Source of the DNA: a virus
Reading direction: 5' to 3' (one strand)
Length of the DNA: 54,213 bases
UHGV virus genome: UHGV-0121358
The translations under genes and the position numbers were made by a program. Shown here one piece after another: positions 13,216-44,325 of the stretch (positions within the stretch are counted from its first letter, which is position 1; each line of letters opens with the position of its first letter). The notes under the pieces are model-generated. The model was given only the letters and a program-made list of their open reading frames with translations. It made no database searches and had not been told where the DNA came from.

Positions 13216-13257
13216 GATTTAACCTCATGCAAAAATGTGATCTGTGTATCTATTTTA

Positions 13258-18909: not shown

Positions 18910-20238
18910 TTAGAAATAAGTGTTAAAGTCTGGTACTTCGCCTTTTTTACCTTCGCTTGCTGCGTTGGTAGCCATCGGCGCTGCTTTGCCCAGGGATTTA
19001 AACATTGCATCGAGCGCATCACCGCTTAATGCGTTAGCAACAATTTCGCCGTGTACTTTCGCAACTGCGGCGCGTTTTTCTGCTTCTTCTTTATTTGCGT
19101 TTGCTGCAATTTCTTCTTTAATTGCTTTCTGGTTGGTCTGCAATTCTTCTTGGTTGGTCTGTAATTCTTCAACGCTTGCCTGTAATGGTTTTAATGCCTC
19201 TGCTACTGCATTAGCGATATTGGCGGATAAGCCTTCGTTAATTTCTTTTACCAGTTCGGCGCGTTCTTCTTTGGTCAAAGGCATGGGATCGTCCTCCGAT
19301 TTATTGGCCTTAATTTTTTCATTCAGGGAGAAAAGATTAGAAAGGTGTTCAGCGAACTGAGCAAACCATGATTTACTTTCCTCGTTGGTTGCAAGCTCGC
19401 CATTATTGAGAATAATTTTATCAGCCTGTTTTTCGTATGCGCAAACTTGAGCACTTTCAGTATTAGTGGCGATCGTCACTTCTTTATCAGTGAAGTCCAC
19501 CACGTACACATAATCGGCATCAGGGAATAATTCCCGCGCCGCGTCGGTTAATTGTTTCTCAAGCGTGCGGTAGCTGTTTTCTTTCATTGCCACCGCCATT
19601 AACGGTTTCGCCTGGTCAGTATTAACCATCAACCCTACACCCTGTTCAGGTGAGGCTGCTGGCGGCTCATGCAGCAAAATAGCGTCATGGTCGATCGACA
19701 TAATTTTAACAACGCTGTCAGCGCCCTGGGCTTTCATCTCTTCAGTAGCTGGCATACGTTGACGATATACAGCGACGGACGACCAGATAGGATCTTTGCT
19801 TTCACCTTTTTCCAGTGCTTCCAGTCTGCTTAATAATTCGCGGCCTTGTTCTGAATGGCTGGCGGTTTCCACATCCACCCATTTTTCCACATAAACACGG
19901 TTGCCGCGTAATTCAACGTTTCTGTTCCACGCCCCACAAAAACCAGTGTTTAATCCTTCCGGGCTAAATGCGGAAACAAATTTACCGTCAACGGTAGGAT
20001 GACCCAGCGGGGCGAGTGTCCCCTCCAGTGACTGGTAATTAGCGATAATTTCAGCTTCAGGGTAATATTCCCGATTCATAACGATGTTAAATGGTAACGT
20101 GTAGGACGGGACGACAATATGTTCCCGCCCGTTATACGTTTCCCGGCGGATGGTATTAGCGGTTAATTTGGTATTAACCTGAATCAGTTCTTTACTCACG
20201 GTTTTACTCCCAATCTTCGCCATATTTAGCGTGCGCAA
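18910..20238 (-). CDS. prohead scaffolding / maturation protein (coiled-coil C-terminus)
   Basis: Track ORF, 442 aa, between morphogenesis and decoration genes; C-terminal heptad-like Glu/Lys/Ala-rich region. Confidence 0.5.
   Translation of the reverse strand: MRTLNMAKIGSKTVSKELIQVNTKLTANTIRRETYNGREHIVVPSYTLPFNIVMNREYYPEAEIIANYQSLEGTLAPLGHPTVDGKFVSAFSPEGLNTGFCGAWNRNVELRGNRVYVEKWVDVETASHSEQGRELLSRLEALEKGESKDPIWSSVAVYRQRMPATEEMKAQGADSVVKIMSIDHDAILLHEPPAASPEQGVGLMVNTDQAKPLMAVAMKENSYRTLEKQLTDAARELFPDADYVYVVDFTDKEVTIATNTESAQVCAYEKQADKIILNNGELATNEESKSWFAQFAEHLSNLFSLNEKIKANKSEDDPMPLTKEERAELVKEINEGLSANIANAVAEALKPLQASVEELQTNQEELQTNQKAIKEEIAANANKEEAEKRAAVAKVHGEIVANALSGDALDAMFKSLGKAAPMATNAASEGKKGEVPDFNTYF
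19130..19171. repeat. 21-bp tandem duplication inside scaffold gene
   Basis: TGGTTGGTCTGCAATTCTTCT / TGGTTGGTCTGTAATTCTTCA (2 mismatches), encoding EELQTNQ twice. Confidence 0.6.
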
Positions 20239-32040: not shown

Positions 32041-32763
32041 TCATTCACCTCGCGTCACTCGTTTAATTTCGTTATCAGCCCGCGCCTCTTCTTTGAACAA
32101 TTCAGCGATGGCGTCTTCATAGAAAACCCGGTATTTTTTCCACCATGTTGATCGGCTTACCGGAAATACAAGCTGATTAACCGCACGCCGGACAAGATCT
32201 ACAGGGAAACGCGAGTACCCGCGCCCGCCGCAATGCTGGCACGTTTTGAACACTGGCATTTCCGCTGCTTCACTGGCTGCTTTATCCGGTATCTCGCCGC
32301 GCCCTTTGCATCGTTTACAATGATTGCGAACTTTTCCATGCCCCTTGCATTTTTTGCAAAGGTGTTTTTCTCCGTAGTCGTCAAACGTAAATTTATATCC
32401 GCCGCAATCCATACAAGTTTTTTCTGTCGCGGCACTCTGGCAGTAATCCCGAAACGCGAAAACGGCAACAAGAATAATAAGATCATTGCGTTTGTCCTCG
32501 TCCAGCTCCATGACGTATTCGTAATCTTTTGCCATAGCTCTTAAACGCTCTGTAAGCAAAACTACGGCCCTGTGTTTTTCGGCTTGCGATAGTTCCATCT
32601 TCCCTAAAAAAGCGCTGTAACCAAGCTCTACGCGCGATTGCGCCATACCTGCAGCGGTTAGCGCATCAGTCGTATTAAGCGCATCCGGGGATGTGCCCCG
32701 GCTTTCGTCTGATAATCGCGGTGATTTGGGAAAGTGGAATTTCAGAATGGATTCTAAATTCAT
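32041..32763 (-). CDS. Q: late-gene antiterminator Q (lambda Q family)
   Basis: Track ORF; N-terminus MNLESILKFHFPKSPRLSDESRGTSPD...AAGMAQS and C-terminal Cys-rich motifs (CKRCKGRG, CQHCGGRGYSRFP) match my recollection of lambda Q. Confidence 0.8.
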   Translation of the reverse strand: MNLESILKFHFPKSPRLSDESRGTSPDALNTTDALTAAGMAQSRVELGYSAFLGKMELSQAEKHRAVVLLTERLRAMAKDYEYVMELDEDKRNDLIILVAVFAFRDYCQSAATEKTCMDCGGYKFTFDDYGEKHLCKKCKGHGKVRNHCKRCKGRGEIPDKAASEAAEMPVFKTCQHCGGRGYSRFPVDLVRRAVNQLVFPVSRSTWWKKYRVFYEDAIAELFKEEARADNEIKRVTRGE

Positions 32764-34142: not shown

Positions 34143-34302
34143 AATGCTCTCTCCTTTTTCAGGTGATTTTTACGCATTTCAGCGTTACCGGATTTTTAAA
34201 GAGCATTTTGTTTGTTTGAAGTATACAAAACGGATACATGCGAACAAACAATAAAGCGCCATTATGTGATCCGCATCACACAATGACGCCATTTTGTAAA
34301 CA

Positions 34303-37818: not shown

Positions 37819-37860
37819 TCACAATACAAAATGTATATTTATGTGATCGGAATTACTCGG

Positions 37861-41121: not shown

Positions 41122-41267
41122 TTAATCTCCCGTGCTGTTAACACTATGTATAAGGCTTTATTCGCGGCGCTCCACATTTCGGCATCGTGAAGCATTTCCG
41201 CTACTGCCAGTTTGAATTGAAGCGCCTGAATAACCATAATGTCATCTCCGGATGTTTACATTTTGTA

Positions 41268-41558
41268 TTAATGGTAGCGGACTTTATCCAGGGGTTTTTC
41301 CCCTAAATGGCGTGGTTGCGTTGCGTGGTAGTAGCTGCCGCTTTCATTTTCCGTATACCATTTTACTGATCCTTTGCGACGTTCTTTAATGCTATTTGGT
41401 TTGCATCTTTCCTCGTTTGCAAATCGAATAGCTTTATCCACATTGTCTGTTTTATTGATTGCAGGTGATGATTTTCTTTCGTTTTCTCTTTTTATCCTTC
41501 TGCGTTCCCTGGCATTCATTTTGCTATCACATTTACCATATATAATTGTAACGCTCAT
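41268..41558 (-). CDS. N: N-like transcription antiterminator (P22 gene 24-like)
   Basis: Track ORF; GGAG SD; N-terminus MSVTIIYGK...NARERRRIKRE with arginine-rich motif resembles P22 gp24 (MTVITYGK...AKTRRHERRR); nut-like site upstream. Confidence 0.7.
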   Translation of the reverse strand: MSVTIIYGKCDSKMNARERRRIKRENERKSSPAINKTDNVDKAIRFANEERCKPNSIKERRKGSVKWYTENESGSYYHATQPRHLGEKPLDKVRYH

Positions 41559-41614
41559 AATCTGATCTCCGTATATCCTTGATGATACTTAATAAAAAAT
41601 CATCTTCGTTAATT

Positions 41615-41652
41615 GCCGCACTTCCAGCGGCTGACCAGATTGTTAATGAGCG
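41615..41652 (-). promoter_or_regulatory. putative nutL (boxA-like CGCTCATTAA plus boxB-like hairpin)
   Basis: On minus-strand transcript: CGCTCATTAA (41652-41643), 11-nt spacer, hairpin GCCGC-UGGAAGU-GCGGC (41631-41615), between pL candidate and N start. Confidence 0.4.
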
Positions 41653-41906
41653 GCTTAACATCTTTCAACTAATCCCGCAATCATCGCCGTTCCCGGCGTG
41701 ACCTTGCTCACTCCAAGCAAGCTGACTCGTCGCCTTGCGTGCGGTTTCGTGGGGGATGTAACGCTTTAAACACCCCATGCGCCTTGTTATCAGTGCCGCT
41801 TTCGGTCCCCCATCGGGGAGTTACTCCACGGTTGACAAGGTGTTAAGCCTGATTTTTAAAGTGCCAGGAAGTTGCTTTTGTTACCTGCGCCCTTCCTTTG
41901 ACTCGC

Positions 41907-41935
41907 AATATACGCCCCGTAAAACATCGAGTCAA
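41907..41935 (-). promoter_or_regulatory. candidate early-left promoter pL
   Basis: Minus strand -35 TTGACT (41935-41930), 17-nt spacer, -10 TATATT (41912-41907); recurrent motif TACAAAATGG abuts the -35 on its upstream side. Confidence 0.45.
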
Positions 41936-42035
41936 TCCATTTTGTATACTTTTTTAAAATATTTTATATGCCATTGATATTTAAATAATAAATAACGTTT
42001 TCTGTTTACGTTTTGGTGTTTTCCAGGCAAAGAAA

Positions 42036-42053
42036 AGCCGCCATTCGGCGGCT
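42036..42053 (-). terminator. rho-independent terminator after repressor gene
   Basis: Stem AGCCGCC / GGCGGCT with loop ATTC; T-rich tract follows on the minus strand; 6 nt downstream of cI stop. Confidence 0.6.
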
Positions 42054-42058
42054 AATGT

Positions 42059-42706
42059 TTATGGCAGGTTTACGATCTTCGCATCAACCACCACGCCTAT
42101 AATTTTTGATTCTGGATTCATAGGGATTGGCGGATACAGCGGATTGAGCGAACGTAAAAGCCTTTGACCTCCATCAATAATCAACTGTTTAAACGTCGGT
42201 ATCTGCCCTTCCTCAAGCTGGGCTATAACCAGTTTGCCGTCAATAGCTGGCGCGTGCGGGTCCACAAGTATCATCGTCCCCGCCGGGATGCTCAACCCCT
42301 GCGGCGCGTTCATTGATTCACCTTTGGCAACCAGCCAGTAACTGTCATCTGAACAAATAACGCTAGTCGTAACGTGTCGTAATGCTGAACGCCTTGCGTC
42401 ATCCATATTGTTTACTGTGTCCTTCCAGTCAATAACCGGGTAACTACCTAAATCACGCGGCGGCACGGCCTGAAGTGTATTAGAAACAGAATCATCAATG
42501 ACCATGCCATCATGTGTAACAGTAAACTGCCGACGACCAAGCTCGCGCATAATCCGCGCAATATCTTCAAGATTTGGCTCTCGGCGACCGTTCAGCCAGT
42601 GTGACAGGCCGCCTTTAGTTATCCCCATACGATCCGCGAGCGAATCCTGGCTCATGCCCTGCGCCCGCATGAGCTGCTTTGCTAAGTCATACCATTTTGT
42701 TTTCAT
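42059..42706 (-). CDS. cI: cI-type repressor (HTH_XRE N-terminus, LexA/S24 peptidase-like C-terminus)
   Basis: Track ORF; N-terminal HTH (QDSLADRMGITKGGLSHWLNG), C-terminal S24-like region with conserved Ser (GESM) and Lys (PTFKQL); divergent from replication operon. Confidence 0.85.
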   Translation of the reverse strand: MKTKWYDLAKQLMRAQGMSQDSLADRMGITKGGLSHWLNGRREPNLEDIARIMRELGRRQFTVTHDGMVIDDSVSNTLQAVPPRDLGSYPVIDWKDTVNNMDDARRSALRHVTTSVICSDDSYWLVAKGESMNAPQGLSIPAGTMILVDPHAPAIDGKLVIAQLEEGQIPTFKQLIIDGGQRLLRSLNPLYPPIPMNPESKIIGVVVDAKIVNLP

Positions 42707-42736
42707 GTCGCTACCCTATAACCTCAAAAAGTTTGA

Positions 42737-42820
42737 TGCAAGTCACAAAACGTGTATTTTAAGCCTTGATCTTAAAATTCCATTTTGTAAACTTGCAGAC
42801 AAGGTAAGGCCATACTTGCA
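42737..42820. promoter_or_regulatory. candidate operator region: three copies of heptamer ACTTGCA/TGCAAGT
   Basis: TGCAAGT at 42737-42743; ACTTGCA at 42791-42797 and 42814-42820, each followed by CAAGG; in the cI / right-operon intergenic region. Confidence 0.35.
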
Positions 42821-43011
42821 AAGACGCAAGGAAAAAGATAACGGAAGGCACAAAAAGGCACTTACCTTATGCTCTTTAAAAATCCGGTGTCGCTGCGAAG
42901 CGAAAAACAAATATCACGCAACGGCGGGATCTGTTGAGCGGTCAGTCACTGCTATCTAATGCTAATGGGATGCCCGCCCGCGCGTTCACTCTAACCATAG
43001 GAGAAAATGCG

Positions 43012-43269
43012 ATGAGTATAAACATGATTAGTAAAGCATGGAACGTAAAACTTAATAGCCCGATTCAAAAACTTGTCTTAATGGCTCTGGCTGAAAAGGC
43101 AGATAACAAAGGACGGGTACATGATGCATCACGCAAAGAAGTAGCCGCAATGTGTGAACTTCCTGTTCATACGGTACATGATGCCTTCGCCGCGTTAATG
43201 GATAAAGGATTTGTTTGTCGTCTTGATGCATTCAGTGATGTCTATGTAGTGATGTTGCCGGAGGGATGA
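43012..43269 (+). CDS. HTH DNA-binding protein (first gene of rightward operon)
   Basis: Track ORF 42934..43269 truncated to ATG at 43012 with AGGAG SD; KLVLMALAEKADNKGRV...SRKEVAAMCELPVHTVHDAFAALMDKGFV resembles HTH domains of replication initiator N-termini. Confidence 0.55.
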   Translation: MSINMISKAWNVKLNSPIQKLVLMALAEKADNKGRVHDASRKEVAAMCELPVHTVHDAFAALMDKGFVCRLDAFSDVYVVMLPEG

Positions 43270-43272
43270 TCT

Positions 43273-44325
43273 ATGAAGTGGTTTAAGCATGACAGCGATG
43301 CGAACCGCGATGAAAAACTTCAAAACGTTTTGTTAGATTATGGCCTGGAAGGGTACGGGCTTTATTGGTATTGCCTCGAACTAATAACTTATGACGTAGA
43401 TCAGCACAATCTGACTTTTGACCTACGACATGACGCGAGAATCATTGCGCGAAACGTCGGATCGACTGAAAAACGTATAGAAGAAATGATGAAATACTTC
43501 ATCGAAATTGGTTTGTTTGAATGTTCTCAAGGCCACATAACTTGTTTAAAGTTATTGAAAAGGCTTGACCAATCAATGACTTCTAAAAGCGCGTACAGGG
43601 CCGCCATAAACACAGCTAAGGAGCAATTAAAATTAGAAAAGTTAATCAATCCAACACAAAAAGGTCATGATAGGGTCATGACCGGGTCAGGAAAGGGTCA
43701 TGAATTAGAATTAGAAGTAGAAGAAGAAAGAGAAAAAGATATATACACTTCGTGTATTGTCGAAAATGAACAAAAAATGGTCAATCATGATGGCGTAAAC
43801 GAAGCGGCGTTGCGTTGCCTGGCCTTCTACAACGACAAGGCAGGATGCAAATGTCGTGATGCGAAGCCATTCATCGAACTACTGACAGAAACAAAAACAC
43901 GTAAAGCGTATACGGAGGATGAGATCACATTAGTGATTGAGTGGGCTTTAACGCAATGGCGTAGCCGTGGTGGAACACCTAAGCCTATCAATATTTGCCG
44001 GGTAACTAAATTTGATGGGTATCTGACTGATGCTGAACAATGGCGCAAACTGTCAGCCACTGCAAACGCTGCCGACGTGGTGGAAGCATTTAACAGCACG
44101 TTTGACGGCCTGTTACCACCTGTCGAACTGGATCGGGATCTTGAACGCAAGATCTATGCGTTCACTGACTACCTGAAAGACAAAAGCATTAACGGCTTTG
44201 TCGCCTACTTCGAAACATTCAAAAACACGGCTTCAGATTTTTACTTCGGCAATGGCTTCACAGCGACACTTGATTTCCTGCTTAAACCAAAAACGCTACG
44301 CGACACACGCGCAGGCGCTCTTTGA
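43273..44325 (+). CDS. replisome organizer / replication initiation protein (DUF4373-like N-terminus)
   Basis: Track ORF; N-terminus MKWFKHDSDANRDEKL...YGLEGYGLYWYCLEL matches the Lin1244/DUF4373 pattern as I recall it; followed by helicase gene. Confidence 0.7.
   Translation: MKWFKHDSDANRDEKLQNVLLDYGLEGYGLYWYCLELITYDVDQHNLTFDLRHDARIIARNVGSTEKRIEEMMKYFIEIGLFECSQGHITCLKLLKRLDQSMTSKSAYRAAINTAKEQLKLEKLINPTQKGHDRVMTGSGKGHELELEVEEEREKDIYTSCIVENEQKMVNHDGVNEAALRCLAFYNDKAGCKCRDAKPFIELLTETKTRKAYTEDEITLVIEWALTQWRSRGGTPKPINICRVTKFDGYLTDAEQWRKLSATANAADVVEAFNSTFDGLLPPVELDRDLERKIYAFTDYLKDKSINGFVAYFETFKNTASDFYFGNGFTATLDFLLKPKTLRDTRAGAL

Follow-up and report, generated by a model that had tools for sequence, protein, structure and literature searches.

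The mEpimmI phages of Escherichia coli are described as Nus-dependent, non-lambdoid and forming one immunity group, and are reported not to be inducible by ultraviolet (UV) light and to lack the Ala-Gly cleavage site (PMC11893012). For mEp021 an immunity function is reported for the repressor, Rep021 (PMC11893012), and, in the account that Negrete-Mendez et al. 2025 (PMC11893012) give of the work of Valencia-Toxqui et al. 2023 (Arch Virol 168:92), the N-like protein Gp17 mediates early antitermination at three sites, nutL, nutR1 (upstream of gp17) and nutR2. The 2025 paper leaves the operators and promoters of the group undefined, and its supplements contain no nut or operator sequences. The subject here is the corresponding part of UHGV virus genome UHGV-0121358, positions 41560-43011 of a 54,213-nucleotide (nt) stretch referred to as the window, which holds candidate promoters, nut sites and operators around a CI-like repressor gene.

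Judged by its sequence, the window is a temperate E. coli prophage of the mEpimmI (mEp021-like) group, and 41560-43011 is its immunity and early-control module. Positions 41200-43300 have 90-93% identity to the Escherichia phages mEp515, mEp010 and mEp021, and a prophage of E. coli strain M15 has 100% identity over 41500-43100, an interval matched in 35 of 5426 complete E. coli genomes. Compared with mEp021 the window, a prophage, represents another mosaic isolate, with about 92% identity in the region, the same gene order and an identical N-proximal nut site, and the other two nut sites are at the same relative positions as far as the published descriptions of them go. The P22-like phages proposed for comparison in a sequence-only reading of this DNA belong to the wrong group. 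All strings quoted in that reading were found where it had placed them when the sequence was re-read; the functions it assigned to them had more varied fates. The nut antitermination system is already published for this phage group and is rediscovered here, while the assignment of operators to the repressor, Rep, appears to be new, though of an ordinary kind; searching full texts of the literature for the operator motif turned up no description of it, only unrelated primers. The explanation that best accommodates the whole, a module of nut site, leftward promoter pL and terminator together with 13-base-pair (bp) Rep operators, is considered likely to be right.

The three nut sites share a boxA, a similar boxA to boxB spacing (two bases longer at the N-proximal site) and a CGC-UG..-GCG hairpin. 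That of the leftward operon, at 41609..41657 on the minus strand, has boxA CGCTCATTAACAA at 41652..41640 and its boxB hairpin at 41631..41615; the boxA string originally noticed, CGCTCATTAA at 41652..41643, is followed 11 nt later by the boxB GCCGC-UGGAAGU-GCGGC. That of the rightward (replication) operon, at 42868..42910 on the plus strand, has boxA TGCTCTTTAAAAA at 42870-42882 and boxB UCGC-UGCGAA-GCGA at 42890-42903, and is nearly invariant among relatives; it lies inside the interval covered by the sequence-only reading, yet went unreported there. The third, TGCTCTTTAAAAATCCGGTAACGCUGAAAUGCGU at 34165..34207 on the minus strand, is upstream of ninG-rusA-Q, the Q homologue being at 32041-32763, and has its mEp021 counterpart at 20172. 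Written to a common layout they read CGCTCATTAACAATCTGGTCA-GCCGC-UGGAAGU-GCGGC at 41651(-), TGCTCTTTAAAAATCCGGTGU-CGC-UGCGAA-GCG at 42870(+) and TGCTCTTTAAAAATCCGGTAA-CGC-UGAAAU-GCG at 34204(-). As mEp021 nomenclature, in the descriptions available, follows the map orientation of that phage, the site first called nutL-like corresponds to its nutR1, the rightward site to its nutL, which is placed upstream of the repressor gene or ‘upstream of gp15’ (PMC11893012) in agreement with 42868-42910, and the third to its nutR2.

As MAFFT misregistered boxB sequences with 7-nt loops against those with 6-nt loops, the covariance model and the counts of base pairs were made from the 6-nt class only, with the N-proximal class held out; the model was trained on eleven nut sequences and the whole window was scanned with filters off. 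The rightward and third sites came out on top (69.1 and 64.2 bits) and the N-proximal site was third, aligned over its full length at 12.5 bits, which makes it the best match outside the training set. Within the 6-nt class 95.5% of cells are paired, and both partners vary in two of the four pairs. Covariation scores 0.373 versus 0.145 in shuffles, none of 500 of which reach it, and slid controls are near zero. The boxB hairpin is the minimum-free-energy fold in all four sequences folded. Loops across relatives are U-GNRA-W (GCGA, GUGA, GCAA, GAAA) or UGGAAGU, so of 6-7 nt, purine-rich and GNRA-like, and are not the lambda pentaloop.

That the N-proximal boxA and boxB merely resemble a nut site by accident, the hairpin being a leader structure or a processing site with no part in antitermination, could draw on an E-value of only about 0.1 in the covariance scan, a point that also counts against the nut assignment more generally, on a folding energy that is ordinary for the composition (z = -0.8), and on a 7-nt loop where the other two sites have 6-nt loops. 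The three-part layout nevertheless matches two high-scoring sites of the same genome, and the site is located between pL and the N-like gene. Its stem, GCCGC/GCGGC in most relatives, is GCUAC/GUAGC in STEC308 and RM9245 and UGCAC/GUGCA in L051, all of them compensated, and its boxA, which in relatives is TGCTCTTTAACAA, CATTCTTTAACAA or CGCTCATTAAAAA, varies toward the ribosomal RNA operon (rrn) consensus. A 51-mer around the site is present in 30 loci and identical in mEp021, for which an experimental nut site is reported at the same position in the published account. A fortuitous origin is, on this balance, very improbable. With two more copies in the window, stem covariation and identity to mEp021, the nut-like boxA and boxB that had been noticed upstream of the N-like gene are borne out, and the features of a lambda-type nut site appear together there: boxA, boxB with a GNRA-like loop, an upstream pL and what would be a cognate arginine-rich N-like protein.

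The antitermination boxA of the E. coli rrn operons is TGCTCTTTAACAA, and the N-proximal boxA of the window fits the CGCTCTT(T)A / rrn pattern expected of lambda-type nut sites. The rightward and third nut sites have the similar TGCTCTTTAAAAA, and several relatives have the exact rrn sequence at the N-proximal site, where the CGCTCATTAACAA of the window is more divergent. Unlike its rrn counterpart, boxA here is followed by a phage boxB and would work with a phage N-like protein.

The N-like gene itself, at 41268..41558 on the minus strand, encodes 96 amino acids that match PHROG 271, ‘anti-termination protein N-like’ (E = 1.3e-13), and is the orthologue of mEp021_17; this match and the shared 51-mer uphold the earlier pairing of an N-like gene with a nut site upstream. 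The protein is about 95% identical to Gp17 of mEp021 and has an arginine-rich motif, NARERRRIKRENERK, at residues 15-29, in which R17, R19, R20, R21 and R24 are kept. The Gp17 arginines at positions 17, 19, 20 and 24, all present in the window protein, are those reported as conserved (PMC11893012). The Gp17 arginine-rich motif has two variants, NARERRRIKRENER and NARARRRMKRAAEQ. A second N-like allele, with the arginine-rich motif NAR(A/K)RRRMKRAAEQ, is present in STEC308 and RM9245 (L002/L003, ~1454-1530) and in L051 (3344-3700), and it is paired with a different N-proximal boxB that has the loop UGAAAU on a stem GCUAC or UGCAC. From window position 41633, a point between boxB and boxA, these phages are again homologous to the window, and the other nut site in the fetched loci, beside rep, is unchanged.

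Upstream of the N-proximal nut site the leftward promoter pL (41907..41935, minus strand) has a -35 TTGACT at 41935..41930, a 17-nt spacer and a -10 TATATT at 41912..41907. It had been singled out as a strong candidate, and with 10 of 12 consensus positions it is the best promoter-like site in 41200-43300. About 46 distinct relatives were compared for the pL region and 47 for the pR region. The pL -35 is kept in 45 of 46 and the -10 in 46 of 46, with a spacer that is always 17 nt and has 15 sequence variants; hexamers that are fixed while the spacer sequence drifts are the signature of a working promoter. The predicted start is at about 41899-41902. L062, a more distant relative, has the same arrangement in the form TTGCAT-16-TATAGT, and in relatives with a short leader pL is the sole conserved promoter between terminator and nut.

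The leader is short or long according to the presence of an optional segment of about 215 nt between pL and nut, at 41654..41867 on the minus strand, which mEp044, Ecol_244 and several IMG/VR relatives lack and which appears to be dispensable. It holds a 37-amino-acid open reading frame (ORF) at 41778..41665, a homologue of mEp021_16, with no match in Pfam, PHROGs or Rfam. At its promoter-proximal edge there is a boxA-like GCACTTTAAAAATC (41864..41851) with no boxB, scoring 9.2 bits in the covariance model. The deletion ends coincide with the two boxA copies, and the presence or absence of the segment looks like insertion or deletion by recombination between them. In the short-leader relatives and L051 pL is about 40 nt from boxA, as in lambda.

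On the other side of pL the repressor gene ends in its own intrinsic terminator (42036..42053, minus strand), AGCCGCC-GAAT-GGCGGCT followed by TTTTCTTT, beginning 5 nt past the rep stop codon, with a stem of seven pairs of which six are G-C. The depositors of four mEp genomes annotated it too, as TERM_1 (score 100) in mEp021 and as T1/T2 in the others, and an invariant stem combined with four loop variants among relatives substantiates the earlier recognition of the terminator. The 10-mer copy beside pL discussed below carries a rightward -10-like TATACT, after which comes a highly conserved A/T-rich block including the palindrome TAAAATATTTTA (41937-42055, plus strand), and the rep terminator hairpin, which is bidirectional, is about 100 nt downstream of that TATACT. 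A small rightward RNA antisense to the 3′ end of rep is conceivable; there is no -35 at that place.

The rightward promoter pR, at 42766..42793 on the plus strand, was absent from the sequence-only reading and, at 8 of 12 consensus positions, is below the threshold of the promoter scan. It consists of TTGATC (TTGACC in 16 relatives), a 16-nt spacer and TAAACT; the -10 is kept in 47 of 47 relatives and the spacer is always 16 nt, its 5′ half being variable. The L062 counterpart is TTGAAC-16-TAAACT. The pR start would be near 42800. A putative promoter for maintenance of the repressor, pRM, can be read on the minus strand at 42715..42741 as TTGCAT (42741..42736), 15 nt and TATAGG (42720..42715), 8 nt from the ATG at 42706, and L062 has the same layout, TTGAAT-15-TATAGG, 8 nt, ATG; the pRM start is predicted at about 42708. 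Several other proposals for this region were abandoned. The sequence TTTTAAG-N7-CTTAAAA around the pR -35, considered for P22-like operator half-sites, is not conserved within the immunity group; an extended -10 (TGn) was ruled out, as no base separates the TG from the hexamer; a pR-leader stem AAGGTAAG/CTTACCTT was dropped as it has no clear covariation; and a sigma-54 -24/-12 promoter, an IHF site and a CRP site at the position of O_R2 (below) misfit in consensus or spacing, as judged by eye only.

Where Rep binds is the question on which the sequence-only reading and the present one diverge. Two sets of sequences had been proposed as operators, and both exist. The heptamers are TGCAAGT at 42737-43 (minus) and ACTTGCA at 42791-97 and 42814-20 (plus), spanning 42737..42820 in the region between the repressor gene and the rightward operon; the inverted repeat around the pL -35 (41898-41935) has arms TTGACTCG at 41898-41905 and CGAGTCAA at 41928-41935, all located by string search. 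Their role as operators is another matter. ACTTGCA occurs 10 times in the window versus 8.25 expected; when the 307-bp intergenic region is shuffled, 23% of the replicates have some 7-mer at least three times (p ~0.23); and 41560-43011 has three 8-bp inverted repeats versus 1.1 expected (p ~0.14). Neither the heptamer trio nor the repeat exceeds what chance would give. Of the two repeat arms, the right one is nothing other than the -35 hexamer, and the left one is kept in only 26 of the 46 distinct relatives; the other 20, members of the same immunity group, have TTGATTCG or another variant there and no change that compensates for it, and L062 has lost the repeat, reading TCGAGGCAAGG downstream of its pL -10. 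The repeat is, on these sequence grounds, the -35 hexamer plus a chance match. What speaks for the earlier assignment is that the heptamers are kept in 39, 39 and 36 of 47 relatives, that two recur at the same places in L062 (ACTTGCA, ACTTGAA), and that pL TGCGAGTCA is weakly similar to the pR-region TGCAAGTCA. The first two heptamers, however, are the promoter-side flanks of the operators proposed below, taking in the pRM -35 TTGCAT beside O_R2 and the end of the pR -10 plus TGCA beside O_R1. They have no dyad partner at a spacing compatible with a dimer and are absent at pL, just as the repeat sequence is absent at pR, though one repressor must act at both. That heptamers serve as the rightward operators and the repeat as the leftward one is therefore quite improbable.

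The Rep binding sites are probably of another type, 13-bp pseudo-dyads related to ATACA-N3-TGTAT. The lead is a recurrent 10-mer, CCATTTTGTA, of which a copy at 42780 had been correctly reported as the one in the intergenic region upstream of the rightward operon; that count was incomplete for the immunity region, as a second is at 41937 beside the pL -35. There are seven exact copies in the window versus 0.21 expected, and 22 with at most one mismatch versus 5.7 expected. The best segment common to the pL and pR regions, TCCATTTTGTAWACTT, matches at 15 of 16 positions, above every shuffle. The 10-mer is the core of the 13-bp motif, the dyad symmetry of which is clean in seven related phage types and degenerate in the window (ATCCA..TGTAT, TTCCA..TGTAA). 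Searching both intergenic regions for dyads in general brought up mostly A/T-rich palindromes.

Evidence for linking the motif with Rep is comparative. Among Rep homologues the recognition helix IT[KQ]G[GA][LV][SG]HWLN[GA]RREP is kept down to about 43% overall identity, and the motif co-occurs with it in L062, L065, L066, L069, L070, L071 and L056/L058. In the last six of these types there are clean ATACA-N3-TGTAT dyads, three of them between rep and a divergent neighbour gene, which is cro-like where called, with spacings of about 33 and 25-27 bp, and L066, L069 and L065 have two or three further dyads downstream of rep. The clusters at L069 2816-2887 and L065 930-1001 were held out of the motif definition yet show dyads. 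L062, the Rep of which is 56% identical with an identical recognition helix, has the same rep-N-gp18-ERF-SSB order and nut sites of the same type, with diverged flanks; its elements are TATACAAAATGG-TA-TTGCAT-16-TATAGT at pL, TGCAAGTTTACGAATTGG over the TTGAAC-16-TAAACT pR, and CCATTTTGTGACTTGAAT before the TATAGG-8 nt-ATG of rep. The control locus L072, which is P22-C2-like, has no ATACA-N3-TGTAT motif and has P22-type half-sites instead. A symmetrised position weight matrix trained only on L066, L069, L070 and L071 and then scanned over the window found 11 sites of at least 12 bits versus 2.0 expected and seven of at least 14 bits versus 0.5 expected, mostly intergenic though about 87% of the window is coding.

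Four sites of this kind are proposed as operators in the immunity region. O_L2, ATCCATTTTGTAT at 41935-41947 (15.8 bits), holds a 10-mer copy and abuts the pL -35 with a 1-bp overlap; it is kept in 40 of 46 relatives, and L062 has TATACAAAATGGTA-TTGCAT at the same place. The weaker O_L1, ATACGCCCCGTAA at 41910-41922 (5.0 bits), is over the pL spacer and -10. Its support is graded weak; it also turned up in the generic dyad search, the spacer positions that relatives share read ..AC[GA]-NGG-CGTAT, and L062 has TCACAAGGCGTAT at the same 25-bp distance from O_L2. O_R1, TTCCATTTTGTAA at 42778-42790 (11.2 bits), is over the pR spacer and -10 and holds the other 10-mer copy. O_R2, at 42743-42755 (ACACGTTTTGTGA on the minus strand, 8.8 bits), is about 41 bp upstream of the expected pRM start; in mEp021 it is ATACGTTTTGTGA (12.0 bits) and in L062 CCATTTTGTGACTTGAAT. 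The O_R1-O_R2 and O_L1-O_L2 spacings are 35 and 25 bp. A third O_R site, expected from the relatives, was absent from the window in the matrix scan. As for operators of the CI type, the same candidate sequence stands at both early promoters, overlaps promoter elements and has multiple copies, set apart by helical-repeat distances.

The element could have a different meaning. It supplies the -10 (TAAACT, TATACT) at pR and at a promoter before the third nut site, at a fixed 16 nt from a TTGnnC -35, and many dispersed copies are upstream of genes in the sense orientation with a -10-like TAWAC[TAC]. As the window copies also depart from symmetry, unlike the usual sites of dimeric CI-type repressors, the CCATTTTGTAWAC(T) elements might be promoter cores, spacer and -10, or the site of another factor, the true Rep operators being elsewhere. 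Several copies, however, are antisense or without a -35 (41937, 41258, 34289, 45783), and in seven other phage types the element is a clean dyad, grouped three at a time in the interval that separates rep from its divergent neighbour, with further clusters past the 3′ end of rep. Its occurrence follows the repressor recognition helix and not the remaining phage background, and the P22-type locus lacks it. An operator overlapping a -10 is in any case a normal arrangement, so the two readings are compatible. Promoter cores or another factor as the full account is unlikely, if less so than heptamer operators.

Assignment of Rep to the 13-bp sites within the module set out here has several points to contend with. 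The window copies are degenerate, with TTCCA or ATCCA replacing ATACA, and have an asymmetric, -10-like TGTAWAC(T) extension, so some may act as promoter cores, whether or not they are operators too. O_L1 has only 5 bits, O_L2 is upstream of the pL -35 and not over the core promoter, and several of the dispersed copies point antisense. The putative pRM is a poor match to consensus with a 15-nt spacer, and the analogy with the lambda switch is incomplete as there is no cro-like gene. Identification of the N-proximal site with the published nutR1 is by position and by sequence identity with mEp021, and transcription starts and Rep binding are likewise read from sequence.

Beyond the immunity region, operator-like 13-mers are found at about a dozen intergenic sites (37824, 37800, 8175, 41256, 45773, 9674/9746, 13257/13282, 46910 and 1464). 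The best copy is the perfect dyad ATACAAAATGTAT at 37824, two pairs, 37800/37824 and 13257/13282, are 24-25 bp apart, and the site at 41256, between the N-like gene and the next gene, has a counterpart at 3281-3293 of L062. Orthologous sites are kept in mEp021 where they fall within the 30 kb of its genome scanned. A further copy is near the third nut site, where a promoter-like TTGTTC-16-TATACT (34220..34247, minus strand; predicted start at about 34213), conserved in mEp021, is covered over its spacer and -10 by the operator-like ATCCGTTTTGTAT (34235..34223, minus strand, 14.8 bits), which ends about 13 nt upstream of the boxA and has its mEp021 counterpart at 20141-20153 (15.8 bits). This suggests that the ninG-rusA-Q block may have a repressible promoter of its own, beyond read-through from nutR1. 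A palindrome, TGTGATCCGCATCACA, at about 34266-34281 adjoins this promoter, and mEp021 has a weak terminator (TERM_4) annotated in the orthologous intergenic region. Two 10-mer copies have beside them a 12-mer, TGTGATCTGTGT / ACACAGATCACA (~1438-1449 and ~13229-13240), and TGTGAT/ATCACA strings are near other copies (9.7 kb, 37.8 kb), perhaps a second recurrent regulatory motif.

Phage repressors with many dispersed operators are known, namely P1 C1, mycobacteriophage L5 gp71 with its ‘stoperators’ and the phiC31 c repressor with its CIRs. With its dozen or so operator-like intergenic sites across the prophage the window is similar to these, and it differs in having a lambda-CI-type repressor with a helix-turn-helix (HTH) and an S24 domain, short pseudo-dyads for which binding is predicted, several pairs 24-25 bp apart and, with respect to the L5 stoperators, no orientation rule. 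The more far-reaching proposal, that the CI-like repressor of mEpimmI governs about 12-15 dispersed intergenic operators beyond pL and pR in a cro-less switch, including the operator-covered promoter before the third nut site and the Q operon, the site between the N-like gene and the next, and the 24-25-bp pairs at divergent accessory-gene promoters, is tentative, with the odds somewhat against it.

The gene order of the region is the N-like gene (41268-41558, minus), the repressor gene (42059-42706, minus), the 307-bp intergenic region, an HTH gene (43012-43269, plus) and a Lin1244-type replication gene, and agrees locally with the rep, terminator, gp16, gp17, gp18, ERF, SSB of mEp021. The annotation of M15 was dropped as a gene map because outside the immunity region the window is a different mosaic. 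The 215-amino-acid Rep, with HTH_3 and Peptidase_S24 domains that confirm the earlier recognition of an immunity region with a CI-like repressor, matches lambda CI (3bdn, E = 1.4e-20); a scan of genome contigs with Rep gave no confirmed relative. The first gene of the rightward operon encodes an 85-amino-acid HTH protein that matches PHROG 4617 and others (‘replication initiation protein’), has no Pfam match and is similar to O-like replication initiators in their N-terminal domain. The window has no cro-like gene in the gap of only about 70 nt between pR and the rightward nut. The more distant L062 has the lambda order of pR, a cro-like HTH_3 gene (75 amino acids) and then nut (L062 1590-1876), the latter reading CGCTCTTTAACAATCTGG with boxB UUGC-UGAAAA-GCAA. 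Between the rightward nut and the first gene of the window the 100 nt at 42911-43011 are almost invariant in 47 distinct relatives, more conserved than the third codon positions of the repressor gene; no intrinsic terminator is predicted in them, and a Rho-dependent terminator or other signal is possible. Rfam produced no meaningful match, either for the whole window at the gathering threshold or for 41200-43300 with E-values of up to 5.

Taken together, the elements can be fitted to a mechanism in which, leftward, the host sigma-70 RNA polymerase would start at pL, cross the dispensable leader of about 215 nt and transcribe first the nut site, an rrn-like boxA and a boxB with a GNRA-type hairpin loop, and then the Gp17 gene. 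The arginine-rich motif of Gp17 would bind boxB RNA and, with Nus factors on boxA, make the polymerase resistant to terminators, and would do so at three sites, N-proximal, just downstream of pR (42868-42910) and before ninG-rusA-Q (34165-34207). The antitermination step is shown for mEp021 according to the account of the 2023 work cited in PMC11893012, and for the window it is read from the identical sequence. By sequence and conservation pL and pR are likely divergent sigma-70 promoters, each followed by a nut site. The repressor gene would be read from the weak pRM in the same direction as pL, its own terminator insulating rep from pL. Dimers of Rep are predicted, from comparative genomics, to bind the 13-bp pseudo-dyads, blocking pR from O_R1 and pL from O_L1/O_L2, where the 25-bp spacing would probably allow cooperative binding. 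The position of O_R2, about 41 bp upstream of the putative pRM start, is that from which lambda CI activates pRM, and Rep may activate pRM there.

The likeness to lambda is substantial in two respects. As with lambda N and nut, there is an arginine-rich N protein and there are boxA and boxB elements, with GNRA-like loops, downstream of divergent early promoters; as with the lambda CI switch, there is an HTH and S24 repressor, a weak and nearly leaderless pRM-like promoter and, at pL, paired candidate operators about 25 bp apart. The differences are no less marked. There are three nut sites rather than two, with boxB loops of 6-7 nt (U-GNRA-W) rather than a pentaloop, and the rightward nut precedes the first gene with no cro. 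The proposed operators are 13-bp ATACA-N3-TGTAT-like sequences rather than 17-bp ones, operator-like sites are dispersed over the genome, and the virion and replication modules are non-lambdoid.

To what is published on mEpimmI this analysis adds a concrete candidate operator assignment for Rep021, the 13-bp ATACA-N3-TGTAT family, supported by sequence comparison across eight phage backgrounds. If the wider proposal is true, a lambda-type repressor would act as a genome-wide silencer, closer to P1 C1 or L5 gp71 than to lambda CI, and transcription into the third nut site would come from a repressible promoter of its own as well as from read-through originating 7.9 kb upstream. A cro-less switch, a Q operon with its own putative operator-covered promoter and nut, and scattered operator-like sites could explain how the mEpimmI group, gut coliphages that match the lambdoids in frequency, stays silent in the lysogen.

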